Shown piece by piece: positions 1,469-13,093 of a stretch of 64,000 nt of DNA; the first letter of the stretch is position 1, and every line of letters begins with the position of its first letter. The stretch spans positions 264,752 through 328,751 of the forward strand of contig CAVWLW010000027.1 in NCBI GenBank assembly GCA_963755715.1, read 5' to 3'. A program made the translations under genes and the position numbers. The DNA is from an uncultured delta proteobacterium (GTDB lineage: Bacteria; Desulfobacterota; Binatia; UBA9968). The notes under the pieces were generated by a model. That model worked only from the letters and a program-made list of their open reading frames with translations. It did not search any database and was not told where the DNA came from.

Positions 1469-1478
1469 CGCCGTCAGA

Positions 1479-1570
1479 TTGGAGTACTGGAGTATTGGAG
1501 TGCTGGGTTTCGGACCGAATACCATATTCTTTGTCTCAGAACCCATTACTCCAACACTCCATCACTCCAA
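1479..1570. repeat. Inverted repeat of 8-bp units (TGGAGTAT-like), 31-bp arms
   Basis: Arms 1479-1509 and 1540-1570 match at 26/31 positions; located between convergent genes. Confidence 0.85.
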
Positions 1571-2440
1571 TTTTCCCGGATCCTTGTAGTAGTGTTTGTA
1601 GTACCACTCGGCGATCTCCCAACCCGTCGTGCGCCATACGCCCTCGTGCGAACACATGTAGTCGAGCGCCTTATCCAAATATTTGATGCGAAAAGGCAGG
1701 CCGATGACGAACGGATGGAGCGGCAAGCAAAGCACGCGACCGCCGGACTCGCTATCTTTGTAAAGCGTGTCGAAGTGATCGCAAACCATCCGGTAATATT
1801 GCTCCGGCGTGTGGTTTTCGCGAATGAACACGCGAATGTCGTTGACGCCCAATTCGTAGGGCACCACGACCATGCGGCCGCTTTTGACACGCATCGGCGT
1901 CGGCTGCTCGTCGTTGCCCCAATCACAGACGTATTCGAATCCTTCCGCAGCGAGATGGTCCGGGGTGTTGTAAGTCTCGCCCAGTCCCGGTCCCAACCAG
2001 CCCTTCGGCGCCTTCCCCGTGGCCTTCGCGATGATCTCCTTCACGTTGTGGATGATCGAGCGCTCTTCTTCGGGCGGGTAATCGAGCATGGAAATACTGT
2101 TGGTCATGCCGTGGCCGAGCCATTCCCACTTGCGCTTGTTGCCTTCTTCGATGATCGGCGGGTGTTTCTCGCAAACCTCGGCGTTCAATAAAACACTGGC
2201 GCGAATACCGTGCTTGTCGAGCACTTCCATGATGCGATAAACGCCCACGCGCGAGCCATAATCGCGCAGCGTGTAGCCCGGCACGTCGGGCGTGTGATTG
2301 CTGCCCGAGCCGCGGATCGGCATGTCGTAGTGAAAATATTCGATATTGGGCGCGACCCACAAAGCTATGCGGCCGTGCTCGGGCCATTCGATTTTCGGTC
2401 GGCGAATGATCGGCGAATAGTCGTAACGTCGGTTGTCCAT
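1562..2440 (-). CDS. Polysaccharide deacetylase family protein (CE4, PuuE/allantoinase-like)
   Basis: DYGSRVG, WLGHG, GWLGP and LPLHPF motifs. Confidence 0.85.
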   Translation of the reverse strand: MDNRRYDYSPIIRRPKIEWPEHGRIALWVAPNIEYFHYDMPIRGSGSNHTPDVPGYTLRDYGSRVGVYRIMEVLDKHGIRASVLLNAEVCEKHPPIIEEGNKRKWEWLGHGMTNSISMLDYPPEEERSIIHNVKEIIAKATGKAPKGWLGPGLGETYNTPDHLAAEGFEYVCDWGNDEQPTPMRVKSGRMVVVPYELGVNDIRVFIRENHTPEQYYRMVCDHFDTLYKDSESGGRVLCLPLHPFVIGLPFRIKYLDKALDYMCSHEGVWRTTGWEIAEWYYKHYYKDPGKLE

Positions 2441-7149: not shown

Positions 7150-7312
7150 AATATCGAAATCCGAAGCACGAAATCCGAAACAAACAGGGGCCTAAATAAC
7201 CATCAATTGCTAGGAAATTCCAAACCAGCAATCCGAAGCATCTTGTTTTGAGCATCGCGTTTTTCGGTCATTTGGATTTGTTTCGAATTTCGGATTTCGT
7301 GCTTCGAATTTC
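7150..7312. repeat. Inverted repeat of 7-bp units (CGAAATC/CGAAGCA), MITE-like
   Basis: Arm 7150-7184 contains CGAAATCCGAAGCACGAAATCCGAAACAAA; arm 7277-7312 is TTTGTTTCGAATTTCGGATTTCGTGCTTCGAATTTC. Confidence 0.85.
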
Positions 7313-8554: not shown

Positions 8555-9697
8555 TTAGGGGAGAAAATCGAATGTACAGTTTAGTCTTTGAAGACGCAGA
8601 ATGTTGTAGGCAGGAACCGGGCGGTGAAATCCTTTGAGCGTTAACTCTCCCATGGATTCCGCCTCGACCATAGATTCGATGCTGCCGAGCAGGCGCTGGG
8701 AAACTAAAATTTCTCCCGGCTTCGCCTCACCACACAGGCGCGCCGACAGGTTGGGCACGCTGCCGATGGCGCCGTACTCCCAACGCCCTTCAAAGCCGAT
8801 GGCGCCGATCGTCGCATAGCCTTGCGCGATGCCGACACCGAAATCGAGATCGTGGCCGAGCTTGCGCCACTTGATTGTTAATTCCTTGACGCGCTCGCGC
8901 ATCGCCAGCGCCATGCGTGCGGCCTGTTCGGCGGCGTTCTCGACCGGCACGGGATCGTTGAAAAAAATCATCATGCCGTCGCCGGCGAAGTGTTCCAGAG
9001 TTCCCTCATATTCGAGAATCAATTTGCCCATGGCGGCGTGATACTCGTGTAAAATGTCCATGACCTCTTCGGGTTCGGCGGTTTCAGCGAACGCGGTGAA
9101 GCCGCGGAGATCCAGATAGACAACCGTTAATTCGCATCGGTGAGTTTTGAGAGGATCGTCAGTCTCGCCGTTGACGATCAATTCTGCGAGCTGTGGGGAG
9201 AAGAAGCGTTTGAGGCGACCGAGGCGTTCGAGCTGGCCAACTTGCTCCTGGACGCGCTGCGCCAAATTTTTATTCCAGTCCGCGAGCTCAACAGCTTGAG
9301 CTTCGACCTGATCGTGGAGCTGCTTGATCCGAAGCAGCGAGCGAACGCGAGCAAGAAGCTCGGCTTGATTGATCGGCTTGGCGAGAAAGTCGTCCGCACC
9401 GGCTTCTATACCCTTGATCCGTTCTTCCGCCGGATCAAGCGCCGTCACCATCACCACCGGGAGAATCCTGGTCGCTGCGTTCTCACGAATCTTGCGGCAA
9501 ACCTCATAACCGCTCATCTCCGGCATGACAACGTCCAACAATACGAGATCCGGCCGTTCCGCTTCCAATTGAGCCAAAGCTTCTCGGCCGGACTCCGCGG
9601 TAACGACGCTGTAACCTTTTACCGCCAACAGATCGGCAAGCAGTTTAACGTTCTTGAGCGTGTCGTCGACAACGAGAATTTTAGCGGGATTATTCAC
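8555..9697 (-). CDS. Receiver domain + class III nucleotidyl (adenylate/guanylate) cyclase
   Basis: ILVVDD..LLDVVMP..KP receiver domain; cyclase motifs DLRGFT, AGDGMM, NLSARL and LKGF. Confidence 0.92.
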   Translation of the reverse strand: MNNPAKILVVDDTLKNVKLLADLLAVKGYSVVTAESGREALAQLEAERPDLVLLDVVMPEMSGYEVCRKIRENAATRILPVVMVTALDPAEERIKGIEAGADDFLAKPINQAELLARVRSLLRIKQLHDQVEAQAVELADWNKNLAQRVQEQVGQLERLGRLKRFFSPQLAELIVNGETDDPLKTHRCELTVVYLDLRGFTAFAETAEPEEVMDILHEYHAAMGKLILEYEGTLEHFAGDGMMIFFNDPVPVENAAEQAARMALAMRERVKELTIKWRKLGHDLDFGVGIAQGYATIGAIGFEGRWEYGAIGSVPNLSARLCGEAKPGEILVSQRLLGSIESMVEAESMGELTLKGFHRPVPAYNILRLQRLNCTFDFLP

Positions 9698-9713
9698 GAG
9701 CTACTCTGTCTTC

Positions 9714-9779
9714 CTTCGTGACCTTCGCGTCCTTCGTGGTTATTATCTTCTCACCACGAAGAGCACGAAGCACACGAAG
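9714..9779. repeat. Hairpin of 9-bp units (CACGAAGnn)
   Basis: CTTCGTGACCTTCGCGTCCTTCGTGGT, a 12-nt loop, then ACCACGAAGAGCACGAAGCACACGAAG. Confidence 0.85.
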
Positions 9780-9804
9780 TTCGGTCTTTTCGTAAAGACC
9801 TTCC

Positions 9805-10177
9805 TCATGCATCGAGGACACGCTGCACTTCCGCGAGAAAATCTTTCAAGCTGATCGGCTTGGTCTGATAGCCGTCGAATCCTTCGGCCAACATCGATGT
9901 CCGGTTATTCGTCATCGCCGACGCCGTGATCGCGATGATCGATATGGCTCTGCGTCTTCGGGTCGGCCTTGAGTTGCTTCATGGCGGTGATGCCGTCCAT
10001 GCCGGGAAGCTGAATGTCCATGAGAATGAGAGCAGGAGCTTGATCCAGAGCGAGCTTGAGCCCTTCTTCCGCCGTCTCAGACTCGATAGTTTTGTAACCT
10101 TTGACCTGCAGCACATCGCGGCAAAGCCTGCGGTTCTTTTCGTTGTCTTCGATGATCAATATAAGTTCGTTGGCCAT
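9805..10177 (-). CDS. Single-domain response regulator (DivK-like), frameshift near 9945
   Basis: ILIIEDN..LMDIQLPGMDG; after a 1-nt shift it reads IIAITASAM..GFDGYQTKPIS..VLDA*. Confidence 0.9.
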
Positions 10178-10186
10178 AGAACCTCG

Positions 10187-10661
10187 GATTATTTTCCCGC
10201 AAAGGCGCTAAGGCGCAAAGGTCGGGAGTTACAAACATCAAGGTCGATCTTCGAGTCCATTCACCACGCGCGTGATGCCGCGCTTCATTAGCGCTTCACC
10301 AAAGTTAGTAAGAAACCAAGCTTGCATCCGGTTAACCGTAGATAGGTCTGCACTTGTTTTTTATGAGCCTCACTTACTTGTTCGACGGATTTTAACTCCA
10401 CTATCACCTTCTCCGCCACAAGAAGATCAGCGCGGAATGCTTCGTCGAAGGTCATATCTTGATAGCGGATCGGGATTGGCATCTGCCGATTCACGCCAAG
10501 ACCGCGTTGTTGTAATTCATAGGCCAAGACAATTTCGTAAACCGATTCAAGTAATCCAGGCCCCAGCTGTCGATGCACCGCAATTGCGCATTGACGATTA
10601 TTGTCCCAATTTCATTCTCCGTCATAACTTAGCGTCTTTGCGCCTTTGCGGGAGAATATTC
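10187..10661. mobile_element. Inverted-repeat-flanked GxxExxY cassette (putative mobile element)
   Basis: 34-bp arms at 10187-10220 and 10628-10661 (29/34 match, 8-bp CGCAAAGG units) enclose only the GxxExxY gene. Confidence 0.7.
10238..10625 (-). CDS. GxxExxY protein (PD-(D/E)XK nuclease-like), two 1-nt indels
   Basis: MTENEIGTIIV..HRQLGPGLLESVYE..FRADLLVAEKVIVELKS..QVQTYLRLTGCKLGFLL(N)FG..ITRVVNGL. Confidence 0.92.
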
Positions 10662-12176
10662 TTATCTGACCGGCAGCGTGAATATGAACCTGCTGCCCCT
10701 GCCCAGCTCGCTTTCCACCCAAATTTTACCGCCGTGCAATTCGACGAACTTCCGAGTGAGCGTCAATCCTAGTCCCGTGCCTTCGCGCTTCTGCGCGTAG
10801 TCGGTGCCCACCTGGCGAAATTCTTCGAAGATGGTTTCTTGGTCTTGTGGGGCAATGCCAATGCCGGTGTCGCTAACCGAGATCTCGACCACTCCGTCAC
10901 TAGACACGGCATCGACGTCCACTCGTCCGCCTTCCGGCGTGAACTTCACCGCATTGGAAAGTAGATTGAGCAGGATCTGCTTGATCTTTCTTTCGTCGCC
11001 GGTCAACTCGCCGAGACGCTCGTCGACGCTGTGATGGAGCCTGATGCCGTGACGGCTGGCGCGCTCGCGTATGAGAGTCAGCGCGTTGTCGATGGCCATA
11101 GGCAAGTCGAACTTGGTCAACTCCAGCTCCATGCGCCCAGCCTCGACCTTGGACAGATCGAGAATATCGTTGATCAGCGAAAGCAGATGGCGACCCGAGG
11201 AAAGGATGTCATCGGTGTACTCGGCTTGTTTTTCATTGAGCTCGCCGAACATTCTCTCGCCCAAGACTTCAGAGAAACCGATGATGGCGTTGAGCGGCGT
11301 GCGCAGCTCATGCGACATGTTCGCGAGAAATTCCGACTTGTGGCGGTTGGCCATCTCGATCTGCCGGCTCTTTTCCTCGATCTCGCGAAACAGCCGCGCG
11401 TTCTGAATCGCCAGGGCGGATTGAGTCGCAAAGGTCTGAAGCAAGTTGACGACTTCCGCAGAAAAACTGCCCGCCTCCTTGCGCCACACTGTCAACGCGC
11501 CCATGATCCGCTCCTCGCGGAGCAGTGGAACAGCCAGAACAGATCGATAGCCGAGGCGCGCAAGCATGGGCCGCACGCGGGTACCGGTATATTCGCGCTC
11601 CTCTAAAATGTCCGGCACTTGAACGGGCGCGCGGACGGTTGCCGTTTGCCCCGTCGCGCCTTGCCCCGGGCGGACCGGGGTCGTTTGCAGCCCCTCGACC
11701 ACTTCCTTCTCTATCTGATAAGTGGCCCTGAGATGAAACTCCTGCGCAGCTTCGTCGTACTCGTAGATCACGCCGCCGCTGGTTCCGGAGAGCTGGACCG
11801 CGTGGCCAACAATGGCGCTGAGCACCGTCTGAAGATCGAGAGTAGAACTGACCGCTTGGCCGACTTCTCCGAGCGCTTTTAGTTCTCCCACTGATCGCGC
11901 CAGCTCGCGCGTCCGCGCTTCCAGTTCCTGGAACAGGCGCACGTTCTCGATGGCGATGACCGCCTGGTCGGCGAAGGTTTCCAGAAGCTTCACATGCTTC
12001 TCTGAGAACGGGCGCACCTCCGTACGGCGAATATTGATCGTGCCGATGGGAATGCCTTCGCGAAGCAGCGGTGTGACGAGCATAGTGCGAGTGCCAGTAA
12101 CTTTCTGACGTTCTTTCGACTCCGGATACTCAGTTTCAATTTCTGCCGCCAGGTCATGAACATGAACGGTCGCTCG
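10662..12176 (-). CDS. Multi-GAF sensor histidine kinase (5' end truncated at the junction)
   Basis: GAF repeats ([19 protein letters not shown]), H-box [14 protein letters not shown]-box [10 protein letters not shown], and G-boxes DTGIGI and GTGLGL. The frame stays open to about 12176. Confidence 0.93.
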
Positions 12177-13093
12177 CGGACTGGTGGTACGAGAGCACGC
12201 TCGAGTCGCCCGAGGACATCCGCCGCGTCCGCGAGCAGTACTTCTCGAGCGATGACCAGCTGATCACGCTCGCGATGGGCACCCGCGGGCCGGGCTTCTG
12301 CACGCCCGAGGTGGTGAAGCACGACTGGGAGCTCGCGCGCGACGTCGGCGCGCCAATCAGCGTCCACGTCGGGATGGGTCCGTATGCCGGGCGCTTCGCC
12401 ATGGTCTCGCAGCTGAACGACATGGGGCTGCTCGGGCCGGACACCACGTACATCCACTGCAACTACCTCTCTGACGAGGAGTTTCAGCTGATCGCGGACT
12501 CGGGCGGGAAGGTCTCGATCGCTCCCTCCGTGGAGATGATCATGGGGCACGGGACGCCGCCGACTGGGAAGGCGCTCGCTCACGGGCTGCGGCCGAGCCT
12601 GAGCATCGACGTGGTCACGACCGTTCCGGGCGACATGTTCACGCAGATGCGGTTCCTGTTCGCCTCCGAGCGGCTGCTCGCCACGAGGCCGCGTTCGCGG
12701 CCGGGCAACGAGGAGGAGCCGGCGCTGCTCTCGTCGCGCGAGGTGCTCGAGTTCGCGACCATCGAGGGCGCGCGCGTGTGCGGGCTCGAGGACCGAACGG
12801 GATCGCTCACGCCTGGCAAGAAGGCGGACCTGGTGCTGATCCGCTGCGACCACTCCAACACGTATCCGGTCATCGACCCTGTCTCGACCGTCGTGCACCA
12901 GGCCGACACCCGCAACATCGACACGGTCATAGTCGACGGCGGGATCCTCAAGCGGGACGGCCAGCTCGTGGACGGCGATCTCCGACGGGCGCGCGACCTC
13001 GCCGGGTCGGCTCTCAACTATCTACTCGAGCACACGGACGTCCAACCTGAGTGGGTGCAGAGTGCAACGGGGTCTCCTGCACACTCTCACTAA
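12170..13093 (+). CDS. Amidohydrolase family protein (5' end truncated at the junction)
   Basis: ISVHVG, YIHC, LSIDVV, ATIEGA and [11 protein letters not shown] motifs; frame extends upstream as ..[18 protein letters not shown]. Confidence 0.9.

Follow-up and report, generated by a model that had tools for sequence, protein, structure and literature searches.

The 64,000-nucleotide stretch of DNA analysed here (the window) contains a kinase-receiver-cyclase operon in which a small gene of the GxxExxY family, enclosed by two inverted repeats, is set between the stop codon of a histidine kinase gene and the start codon of a receiver gene (Table 1). The question raised by this locus is whether the repeats (arms) and the gene (cargo) constitute an insertable unit, and of what kind and age, or whether the hairpin serves the host operon and the gene is an incidental passenger. 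The reading favoured here, with a probability of roughly 60%, is that the element is a copy, long resident at this site, of a selfish, hairpin-bounded minigene cassette that is like the intervening sequences (IVS) of 23S rRNA genes in some respects and like REPINs in others.

Table 1. Features of the operon and its two hairpins, in coordinates of the window.
Feature	Position	Strand	Remarks
Histidine kinase gene (HisKA/HATPase)	10662..12083	-	TAA (10664-10662) abuts the cassette
Upstream arm (operon sense)	10628..10661	-	Starts at the first base 3' of the kinase TAA
GxxExxY cargo gene	10238..10625	-	ATG 10625-10623, stop 10240-10238; profile match
Downstream arm	10187..10220	-	Complementary to the upstream arm at 29/34; ends 9 nt from the receiver ATG
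Single-domain receiver gene	9805..10177	-	GAGG 5 nt 5' of the ATG; one extra base at 9949 in the assembly
Gene-less hairpin, CACGAAG unit family	9714..9779		Fills the receiver/cyclase junction
Response-regulator and nucleotide-cyclase gene	8555..9697	-	Last gene of the kinase-receiver-cyclase operon

Recomputation of the inverted repeat gave the same figures as the earlier note on this DNA, which had described 34-bp arms with a 29/34 match and three 8-bp units: each arm is 34 nt long, 85% of the positions are complementary, and 407 nt lie between the arms. On the minus strand, the upstream arm is composed of an outer A/T-rich part of 9 nt, followed by CTCCCG and then by three 8-nt units (CGCAAAGG, CGCAAAGA and CGCTAAG); the downstream arm contains the complements of these units. 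The arms directly adjoin the stop codon of the kinase gene on one side and the ribosome-binding site of the receiver gene on the other, as had been claimed: the stop codon ends at 10662 and the upstream arm begins at 10661, whereas at the other end the 9 nt CGAGGTTCT separate position 10187 from the receiver ATG at 10177. Equally correct was the claim that they bracket only a single GxxExxY gene (TIGR04256), and no transposase gene is present in the cassette. The ATG of the cargo gene (10625) lies 2 nt past the upstream arm. The statement that this gene has no ribosome-binding site of its own holds in that no separate Shine-Dalgarno sequence intervenes between the arm and the ATG, but purine-rich units of the arm (AAAGG, AAGA) are at a distance from the ATG that would suit them to this role. 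A scan of the operon strand for promoters and terminators found nothing convincing within the cassette. No clear target-site duplication was found at the cassette, and none was evident in the flanks of 38 hairpins; a putative flanking direct repeat, ATCGGA, matches at 6/6 positions in locus L040 but at only 4/6 in the window cassette.

The identification of the cargo as a GxxExxY gene in the earlier note is borne out, but in the window the assembly splits the cargo ORF over three frames and the receiver ORF over two. Metagenome contigs from two independent DNA runs have an additional base at each of 10306 and 10587 and lack one at 9949. The additional base at 10306 is present in two RNA-library contigs as well, and the same two 1-nt gaps appear in the window cargo against 8/8 aligned homologues. 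Because the independent contigs and the homologues lack them, these frame breaks are attributed to errors or variants of the assembly; pseudogenisation of the cargo is ruled out by the same contigs and alignment. With the missing bases, the cargo gene, intact in nature, should be one ORF, and seven of eight close homologues encode 128 aa. The gene is indeed richer in A+T than its neighbours, as the earlier note had it: its G+C content is 0.479, whereas kinase, receiver and cyclase have 0.589, 0.534 and 0.561, respectively, and its GC3 is 0.485, compared to 0.65-0.72.

The middle frame of the cargo matches TIGR04256 (E 3.5e-37, with 127.3 bits where the cut-off is 35), the cargo of the ortholog L001 matches PF13366 (PDDEXK_3; E 1e-42, 145.5 bits against a cut-off of 22), and by profile the cargo is not a member of PF05635, the S23p/IVP family. 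Five residues (E27, D67, E77, K79 and Q91) do not vary among 27 sequences; they correspond to the catalytic set of PD-(D/E)XK nucleases, the E of GxxExxY, the D, ExK and QxxxY. The best structural match to a model of the protein (pLDDT 92.9) is Cas4 (4r5q, E 4e-4), and a search of solved structures by sequence returned 4r5q alone, as a weak match (E 0.33). As modelled, the cargo protein is by its fold a Cas4-like nuclease of the PD-(D/E)XK type. Membership of a defence system is not claimed, as PADLOC gave only weak Cas4 matches (E 5e-4 and worse). GxxExxY/PDDEXK_3 is a large family whose function is listed as unknown in a table of PMC3424549, the three papers found to contain the word GxxExxY mention it only in passing, and the IVS protein family has been termed functionally uncharacterised (PMC11270868).

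One account of the locus, a chance palindrome or a standard terminator beside a random small gene, has nothing in its favour beyond the presence of a stem. Flanking inverted repeats were sought around homologous genes, as the earlier note had proposed: arms flank 31/35 GxxExxY homologues, compared to 4/64 displaced controls, with a period of 8 in 29 of the 31. Homologues of IVP (23S-rRNA-IVS-protein) have arms in 70/78 cases, compared to 1/76 controls, and the period is 7 in 66 of these. The two arms of a cassette co-vary, the unit type being identical in 22 of 31 GxxExxY cassettes when 6.9 were expected and the maximum in 1000 shuffles was 14. This recurrence and co-variation refute the chance or terminator reading, the probability of which is close to nil; also against it, the terminator scan found no T-run terminator at the cassette arms, and a search of positions 9500-10900 against Rfam at E values up to 1 matched no family, rRNA included.

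The kinase/receiver context is common to only 8 of 33 cassettes. One cassette (L002) has a cargo 81% identical to that of the window, although its adjoining kinase is only 49.5% identical and its flanks 45-50%. The length and sequence of the arm units go with the family and clade of the cargo: within one genus and at the same type of junction, clade A cargo has CGCAAAG arms and clade B cargo (about 45% identical to clade A) has CACGAAG or CACGGAG arms. Genes of PF05635 are the cargo of identical hairpin cassettes in the window's genome and at the same operon junctions in relatives. The record titles of close homologues name many phyla, the composition of the cargo is foreign, and a viral contig collection contained one relative only (L260), also flanked by arms, so phage carriage looks rare in that collection. 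From these sequence comparisons, arms and gene hold together as a unit across unrelated contexts, and the cassettes form a large family of insertable hairpin elements, apparently undescribed so far, that are built like the rRNA IVS. A literature search found no description of GxxExxY cassettes; a paper on the TAACTGA heptamer (PMC4679880) deals with direct repeats before start codons and not with hairpin cassettes.

Empty sites in orthologous operons, which the earlier note had proposed to look for, do exist, and the cassette is not fixed. As most homologues also have arms, neither of the two sequence-based outcomes that the note named as refuting it was obtained. The kinase/receiver junctions of 18 congeneric operons comprise 12 that are loaded, three with other content and three that are empty; arms without a gene are found at this junction in L039, and the junction is empty in 18 further homologues. 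In element-free homologous operons, stop and start codons overlap. Two sister kinases have different cargo at the same junction (GxxExxY in L002, IVP in L047), and the kinase tree requires at least two gains of the cassette, which is common to a clade of related operons. The window's genome possesses a single copy of the GxxExxY cassette, and single-copy orthologs are present in 11 of 30 congeneric genomes. The receiver/cyclase junction is occupied in orthologs by five different hairpin types, or by none; in the window, the arms of the hairpin found there are in an unusual order, and their outer ends face each other across a gap of 10 nt. As judged from the phylogeny and the junctions, the window cassette is an old, vertically inherited resident and not a recent insertion, having entered long ago a junction that overlaps in cassette-free homologues. 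The description of the locus as a non-transposase mobile unit is apt for an element that recurs in unrelated contexts without a transposase, but less so for the window copy with its age and vertical inheritance.

No mobility event was caught. The exact empty allele of the window lineage had 0 matches in the metagenome collection, which is not evidence of its absence. Three read joints of run X3 (10220>10628, 10217>10636 and 10220>10636) were considered as candidates for this allele, but they are supported by 27 nt of arm at most and contain 31-37 other letters, and so are ascribed to other gene-less hairpins; a joint at 10024>10774 removes parts of both genes and is probably a fused paralog. 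The orthologous MAG records bear the titles of several phyla, but their kinases are 76-87% identical and cluster in the tree, which speaks against cross-phylum transfer of the operon-resident copy and marks the titles as unreliable bin labels.

Loaded cassettes are greatly outnumbered by hairpins of the same construction that have no gene: in the window's genome there are 87 gene-less tandem-unit hairpins and four loaded ones. The 87 lie at a median of 9.5 nt from the facing stop codon and are depleted in divergent gene gaps (9/87, compared to 775/3357 background gaps), and the tight stop-hairpin-start geometry is general among the hairpins of this genome; it is consistent with the putative excision, looping-out, processing and sparing of translational coupling. 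CACGAAG hairpins, which have arms of the clade-B type, number 38 in this genome. Among congeners, matches to the hairpin pattern range from 0 to 196. The median number of CACGAAG hairpins is 62 in genomes with a clade-B gene and 3 in genomes without one (p 0.0004, uncorrected for kinship), compared to 10 and 7 with and without clade A; CGCAAAG hairpins have a median of 13 where clade A is present and of 1 where it is absent, and the same two medians apply to clade B. The association is thus specific to a clade for CACGAAG hairpins but not for CGCAAAG hairpins, and in all these counts related genomes are not independent. There are exceptions to the association (G000, G040 and G036), and an association of hairpins with the nuclease would also be expected were the nuclease a mere passenger. 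The gene-less loops retain ends that are internal to the cassette, such as ATGACGGA, a remnant of the start, in L009 and TTCTAAAC before the arm, and so the gene-less hairpins look like deletion derivatives of loaded cassettes. Nested or tandem copies were found in L223, L225 and L237: in L225 one hairpin lies within the loop of another, and in L223 a clade-B cassette lies within a clade-A hairpin.

Such nesting shows that loops do serve as insertion targets, and it lends some credit to the unlikely alternative in which the host has REP-like intergenic hairpins of its own, the arms being one of them, and a free-standing, homing-endonuclease-like GxxExxY gene entered the loop. The arms, of about 30 bp, would then supply the homology for gene conversion of empty hairpins by loaded ones. 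The different cargo of sister kinases at the same junction, the similarity of the L002 cargo despite its dissimilar flanks, and the excess of gene-less over loaded hairpins are all in keeping with homing, but the tracking of cargo family and clade by arm family would not be expected of a cargo that lands in any host hairpin, and loops that keep cassette-internal ends are not virgin targets. Homing is compatible with the reading of the element as a selfish cassette, for which it could be a route of cargo spread among hairpins.

Pairing of the cassette arms in the mRNA is predicted by both the minimum-energy fold and the centroid. The mismatches in arms comprise 18 of the G-U type, 20 of the A-C type and 46 others; this comparison of G-U with A-C mismatches as a test of RNA-level pairing found no bias, and with no excess of G-U it does not demonstrate selection at the RNA level. 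The window's genome has a gene for RNase III. One RNA-library contig covers receiver, arm and cargo (10094-10395) and crosses the arm uncut, and DNA may be present in RNA libraries. The end of an RNA contig at 10221 (run X15) was rejected as the end of an RNA, since contigs break at repeats and cannot reveal RNA ends.

If the hairpin acted in RNA for the benefit of the host, it might be an intercistronic stabiliser or processing site of the mRNA, like REP or Correia elements, selected for differential expression of the kinase, receiver and cyclase, with the gene as an incidental passenger. The placement of hairpins shortly past stop codons and their depletion from divergent promoter gaps would fit such a role, as would the retention of the cassette at the kinase/receiver junction across a clade and the precedent of Correia elements, which bind RNase III and are cleaved or protected by it (PMC2649163). 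This host-serving role is nevertheless improbable: homologous operons that have overlapping genes and no hairpin work, occupancy and hairpin family vary freely among close relatives, copy numbers vary as widely as stated above within one genus, and the conservation of the cargo ORF and its catalytic residues is unexpected for a functionless passenger.

The selfish cassette, being promoterless, would be transcribed within the host operon, and pairing of its arms in the transcript could give a stem of about 30 bp. This stem would, as in the IVS, be a substrate of RNase III, and the host and cargo messages may separate; the operon is proposed to tolerate the cassette because the stem would bring the stop codon of the preceding gene close to the start codon of the next. 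At the DNA level, the cassette family may spread or persist through its arms, the most likely agent being the Cas4-like nuclease, which would act on its own clade-specific arms as RAYT does on REPINs, and the gene-less hairpins would be internally deleted, non-autonomous derivatives. The same cassette architecture is found with IVP cargo, which does not have the nuclease fold, and so shared host machinery or trans-acting machinery may move both.

A wider proposal, put forward tentatively as one that is rather less likely to be right than wrong, is that a vast class of mobile hairpins, spread across phyla and free of transposases, has the GxxExxY proteins as its dedicated nucleases, and that the IVS proteins have the corresponding part in a sister class. 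Each protein clade would recognise its own arms, with a period of 8-9 nt for GxxExxY and 7 nt for IVP, and would mobilise loaded cassettes together with a swarm of gene-less hairpins. The elements would target stop-start junctions and hairpin loops, and the RNA stem would span the distance from the stop codon on its upstream side to the start codon on its downstream side, allowing the operon to be expressed despite the insertion. One architecture for GxxExxY and IVS proteins gives each a testable role, namely action on its own arms. If the proposal is true, the rRNA IVSs are one particular form, the long-known tip, of a far more widespread element, and the dense intergenic hairpin repeats of many environmental genomes are explained, as are the spurious small ORFs and the breaks in contigs that go with these repeats. 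For the study of operons, the cassettes offer a natural case of genes that once overlapped and now tolerate up to about 1 kb of foreign sequence between them.

Four known systems invite comparison. Integron gene cassettes consist of a promoterless single gene with a hairpin-forming recombination site, occur in tandem stacks and depend on an upstream promoter for their expression, and in these features the present cassettes are like them. An integron cassette has its attC site on one side only and requires the IntI integrase and an attI platform, whereas the arms described here bracket the gene on both sides and no IntI or attI is involved.

The Correia elements (CREE/NEMIS) of Neisseria and other bacterial MITEs are also short inverted repeats co-transcribed with their neighbours; the Correia hairpin is an RNase III substrate, intergenic and mobile on an evolutionary time scale (PMC2649163). 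Unlike the cassette, Correia elements are geneless and promoter-creating, with defined TIRs and duplication of TA (PMC2649163). The arms of the cassette are arrays of units, some copies bear a gene, and no target duplication has been established.

The resemblance to REPIN/RAYT systems is in the single enzyme gene between inverted copies of a repeat, the scattering of that repeat over extragenic sites as numerous gene-less hairpin doublets, and the tendency of the repeat family to match the gene clade while hairpin numbers differ between relatives (Bertels and Rainey 2011, PMC3116915). The enzymes are different, a Cas4-like PD-(D/E)XK protein in the cassette and an HUH Y1 tyrosine transposase in RAYT, as are the repeats, which are tandem units of 7-9 nt in the arms but a GTAG-type palindrome in REP, and the IVP sister cargo is not an enzyme. 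Transposition intermediates of the cassette were not seen. The window's genome also has true REP-flanked RAYT genes.

The IVS of 23S rRNA differs in its cargo, a four-helix-bundle S23p/IVP protein instead of a PD-(D/E)XK nuclease, in its unit period of 7 instead of 8, and in its location within the rRNA gene (helix 25 or 45), which fragments the rRNA, instead of the kinase/receiver junction of an operon mRNA. Cleavage by RNase III is demonstrated for the IVS, occurring mid-stem in Coxiella burnetii (PMC4990558), and is presumed by analogy for the cassette. Terminal inverted repeats that form a stem of about 28-34 bp are common to both (PMC4990558), as are reliance on host transcription, a sporadic distribution, and one small promoterless ORF of about 120-130 codons in the loop. 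Tandem short direct repeats are placed in both elements within the arm immediately 5' of the ORF's ATG, and the 23S IVS of C. burnetii, with a terminal stem of 28 bp, has three tandem heptamers right before the ATG of S23p (PMC4990558).

The GxxExxY gene (the cargo) at the kinase|receiver junction of the minus-strand operon is bracketed by genuine inverted-repeat arms, as an earlier note had claimed; an inverted-repeat comparison found the two 34-nt arms to be 85% complementary and separated by 407 nt. In the operon sense (minus strand), the 3' end of the kinase gene reads ...GTC AGA TAA and is followed directly by the upstream arm, G AATATTCTCCCG CGCAAAGG CGCAAAGA CGCTAAG. TT precedes the ATG of the cargo, and the downstream arm, CTTTGCG CCTTAGCG CCTTTGCG GGAAAATAATC, is separated from the receiver ATG by CGAGGTTCT. 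In a profile search, the middle frame of the cargo belongs to the GxxExxY family (TIGR04256, E 3.5e-37). The same note's impression that this gene is more AT-rich than its neighbours holds for both GC (0.479 versus 0.53-0.59) and GC3 (0.485 versus 0.65-0.72).

In the window assembly, the cargo falls into three frames and the receiver into two. By comparison, contigs of two independent soil/rhizosphere DNA runs are one base longer at both 10306 and 10587 and one base shorter at 9949; two RNA-library contigs share the additional base at 10306, and the same two cargo gaps are evident upon alignment to eight homologues. Because the metagenome contigs and the homologues lack the breaks, the GxxExxY gene is taken to be intact in nature and the frame breaks to belong to the window assembly. 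Each of the three single-nucleotide differences from the metagenome contigs disrupts a reading frame, which suggests that this assembly carries indel errors, and caution is therefore due over its other apparent pseudogenes. The kinase gene may be split as well, with an ORF at 11990-12898 upstream of 10662-12083.

A homologue search with the 107-aa frame as query returned 38 loci with record titles covering many phyla, 35 of them near-full matches (44-84% identity). When the best ungapped inverted repeat between 200 nt upstream and 220 nt downstream was scored, and scores of at least 14 were counted, arms were found at 31 of these 35 homologues versus 4 of 64 control windows displaced by 500 nt, so that inverted repeats, which the earlier note had proposed to look for at many GxxExxY genes, are indeed general. 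An 8-nt period is present in 29 of the 31 arm-flanked loci; by eye, arms of C-R-C-N-A-A-G units were recognized in 33 of 35 loci (exceptions L019 and L035), with the arm order reversed in L025. Paired arms vary together: the majority unit type is identical between the two arms in 22 of 31 cassettes (expected 6.9, maximum 14 in 1000 shuffles), and both arms agree at unit position 2 (G or A) in 30 of 31. The window's genome has two more hairpins (L119 and L120) that contain genes of the 23S_rRNA_IVP family (IVP; PF05635), a sister cargo in the same architecture. One of these two genes was used to find 80 loci, of which 78 had sufficient flanking sequence: flanking inverted repeats are present in 70 of them versus 1 of 76 controls, and the arm period is 7 nt in 66. 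Since GxxExxY arms have an 8-nt period and IVP arms a 7-nt period, arm unit length tracks cargo family.

Only 8 of 33 cassettes are in a kinase|receiver context; in seven of these the kinases share 76-87% identity with that of the window, which makes the position orthologous in seven loci. At L002, the cargo is 81% identical to that of the window and the kinase only 49.5%. Further junction loci were obtained by a search with the kinase C-terminus, the closest of which (L039, 84%) has arms enclosing a loop of only 40 nt. The junction is occupied by a single intact cassette in L040, by a gene-less hairpin, a loaded cassette and another gene-less hairpin in tandem in L078, and by an IVP gene within GGATTTT-heptamer arms in L047. 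The empty sites sought by the earlier note in related operons were also found: L046 and L049 have kinase-receiver-cyclase operons without any hairpin (in L046, kinase stop and receiver start overlap as ATGA), and a degenerate-pattern search added 18 empty-junction loci, with kinases 68-86% identical in the 16 that could be scored. The typical empty junction is CCGGTGAGGCCATGG, in which the kinase gene extends a few codons past the receiver start. In a kinase tree, six loaded loci form one well-supported clade, adjoined by the window and L034 in no settled order; the GxxExxY locus L002 and the IVP locus L047 are sisters, distant from the loaded clade, and the starred branches require at least two gains. 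Of 39 kinase 3' ends in 18 genomes of the genus, 18 lie no more than 1.4 kb from a receiver gene; 12 of these junctions hold a GxxExxY cassette, three other hairpin content, and three are empty (two 29-nt overlaps and one 55-nt spacer). By comparison of these sequences, the window cassette is a long-established, vertically inherited occupant of a once-overlapping junction and not a recent arrival. The kinase family is strongly expanded across the genus (as many as ~20 DNA matches in a genome, frequently with several in one neighbourhood), which opens many paralogous kinase|receiver junctions to cassettes. Contigs of two DNA runs fuse the kinase ATPase region to the conserved core of the receiver (joint 10024>10774), probably owing to a hybrid kinase paralog in the community.

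The receiver|cyclase junction varies in content in almost every ortholog compared. It holds a CACGAAG hairpin in the window, gene-less CGCAAAG hairpins (the arm type of cargo clade A) in L001 and L009, an IVP cassette with GAAATCCGAA arms in L005 and L040, a GTAAGGNG hairpin enclosing a nested CGCAAAG remnant in L006 and L078, a CGCAAAG hairpin whose loop contains a further repeat in L034, and only a GTGA overlap, free of hairpins, in L046. Gene-less hairpins would derive from loaded cassettes by internal deletion, an origin supported by their retention of cassette-internal ends; that of L009 retains ATGACGGA, the start of the lost gene. A second cargo clade in the genus, clade B, is ~45% identical to clade A and has CACGAAG arms in L230, L239 and L247 and CACGGAG arms in L241. 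In L223, a clade-B cassette is nested within a clade-A hairpin; in L225, the loop of a CGCAAAG hairpin encloses a GAAATCCGAA hairpin, and in L237 a loaded cassette stands in tandem with three hairpins that lack a gene. Recurrence across contexts, empty junctions and varied occupancy support the comparative parts of the earlier proposal of a mobile, operon-tolerated cassette; the mechanistic parts of that proposal, among them the sparing of translational coupling, are putative. The loops of some gene-less hairpins beside the cassette (L005, L002) contain a strong Shine-Dalgarno sequence and a mini-ORF of 5-9 codons, such as AAAGGAGGTGGGAG ATG...TAA in L005; these are candidates for translated remnants or for functional ORFs of a leader-like kind.

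An inverted-repeat scan of the window's genome identified 87 hairpins with arms of tandem 7-9-nt units in about ten sequence families, 38 of them in the CACGAAG family, of which 37 share arm order. The exception is the window's receiver|cyclase hairpin (9714-9779), in which a right-type arm, 10 nt and a left-type arm follow one another with the usual outer ends facing; no partner arms were found elsewhere in the 64,000 nt, and it could be a permuted copy or a junction of two truncated elements. By crude ORF calling, the median distance between a hairpin and its facing stop codon is 9.5 nt (67 of 106 within 15 nt), and 50 hairpins occupy co-directional, 28 convergent and, rarely, 9 divergent gene gaps, against 1730, 852 and 775 background gaps. 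The exact stop/RBS placement noted earlier for the cassette extends to these hairpins, many of which fill the whole stop-start gap.

With a strict pattern, each of 30 genomes of the genus (excluding G005, which is unpublished) has 0-196 CACGAAG and 0-106 CGCAAAG hairpin matches, and the reversed-pattern control has none in any of them. A clade-B gene is present in 11 genomes, where the median CACGAAG count is 62, as against 3 in the other 19 (one-sided Mann-Whitney p 0.0004, related genomes being non-independent); this count is not linked to clade A in the 30 genomes (10 with, 7 without; p 0.22). CGCAAAG is enriched equally with either clade (median 13 with versus 1 without, for each, in genomes likewise non-independent). 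The cognate hairpin family dominates in four of six genomes with clade A only and five of six with clade B only; hairpins are few in the 13 genomes that lack both clades, G040 excepted. A gene that merely rode on an element mobilized by another agent would also be expected to show such an association. Among sampled relatives of the window, the family was found in 13 of 17 genomes of the genus, with G005 excluded, and in 1 of 12 genomes from other families of the order.

Features of the cassette, the window and its genome (G000; C, contig)
Feature	Location	Strand	Remarks
Upstream arm (operon sense)	10628-10661	-	34 nt, inverted repeat
Downstream arm (operon sense)	10187-10220	-	34 nt, inverted repeat
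Tandem-unit hairpin	1478-1571		TGGAGTNN 8-mers between convergent genes
Tandem-unit hairpin	7156-7312		GAAATCCGAA-type arms, 107-nt loop
IVP gene in hairpin (L119)	G000 C14:35777-36221		7-nt-unit arms AGGCAAT; four-helix-bundle cargo
IVP gene in hairpin (L120)	G000 C29:15350-15821		7-nt-unit arms AGTCCTG/AGTAATG; four-helix-bundle cargo
Small GIY-YIG-like genes	G000 C2:68716-69088, C63:20388-20888		by eye from translation
IS200-like or RAYT-like genes	G000 C26:28394-28760, C72:44679-45332		by eye
Near-perfect inverted duplication	G000 C15:13213-14228		~470 nt/arm; three adjoining segments, 93-98% identity

Other repeats are present in the same genome. Each GIY-YIG-like gene lies between inverted copies, ~30 nt long, of further dispersed repeats, which may represent a third pairing of a nuclease with a hairpin. 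The IS200/RAYT-like genes have inverted GTAGGGG-type REP palindromes on their flanks; these classical REP/RAYT units occur alongside the unit-array hairpins. The C15 duplication, a coding-looking region folded back upon itself, may be an assembly artefact, and a run of ~29 T then ~29 A close to a contig end (C68:460-541) is probably a sequencing or assembly artefact.

The predicted GxxExxY structure is a confident model (pLDDT 92.9), of which the nearest solved folds are Cas4 proteins, then TT1808, lambda-type exonucleases and archaeal Holliday-junction resolvases, at modest scores (TM 0.43-0.56); E27, D67, E77, K79 and Q91 are invariant. Because of these fold neighbours and residues, the protein is plausibly an active structure- or end-specific DNA nuclease, and by association would be the agent of DNA-level spread via clade-specific arms. 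The arms are paired in both the minimum-energy and centroid folds predicted for a 511-nt transcript segment (z-score only -1.8), and an RNase III gene is present in the genome; by analogy, the arms would pair in the transcript and RNase III would then process the stem. A 303-nt RNA-library contig that runs over the 5' end of the receiver, the downstream arm and the 3' half of the cargo is compatible with co-transcription; contigs cannot show ends, and such libraries may hold DNA. Arm mismatches among 829 pairs in 30 cassettes (18 G-U-type, 20 A-C-type, 46 other) speak against an RNA-specific constraint.

No description of GxxExxY hairpin cassettes was found in the mostly open-access full texts searched, where the papers that mention GxxExxY deal with other topics, nor any occurrence of TIGR04256; one table row enters PDDEXK_3/PF13366 as 'Unknown' (PMC3424549). 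The cassette architecture offers a testable role for two large uncharacterised protein families, GxxExxY and the IVS protein. The closest system in architecture is the rRNA intervening sequence (IVS). In the best-studied ORF-bearing IVS, that of Coxiella, terminal inverted repeats make up a 28-bp stem cleaved at its middle by RNase III, and three tandem heptamers directly precede the ATG of the S23p ORF, according to PMC4990558; cargo, unit period and host molecule differ from those of the GxxExxY cassette. Correia elements share RNase III targeting (PMC2649163) but are gene-free. REPIN/RAYT systems are closest in population structure, although enzyme class and repeat type differ (PMC3116915). 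The GxxExxY cassette thus combines an IVS-like architecture with a REPIN-like population structure.
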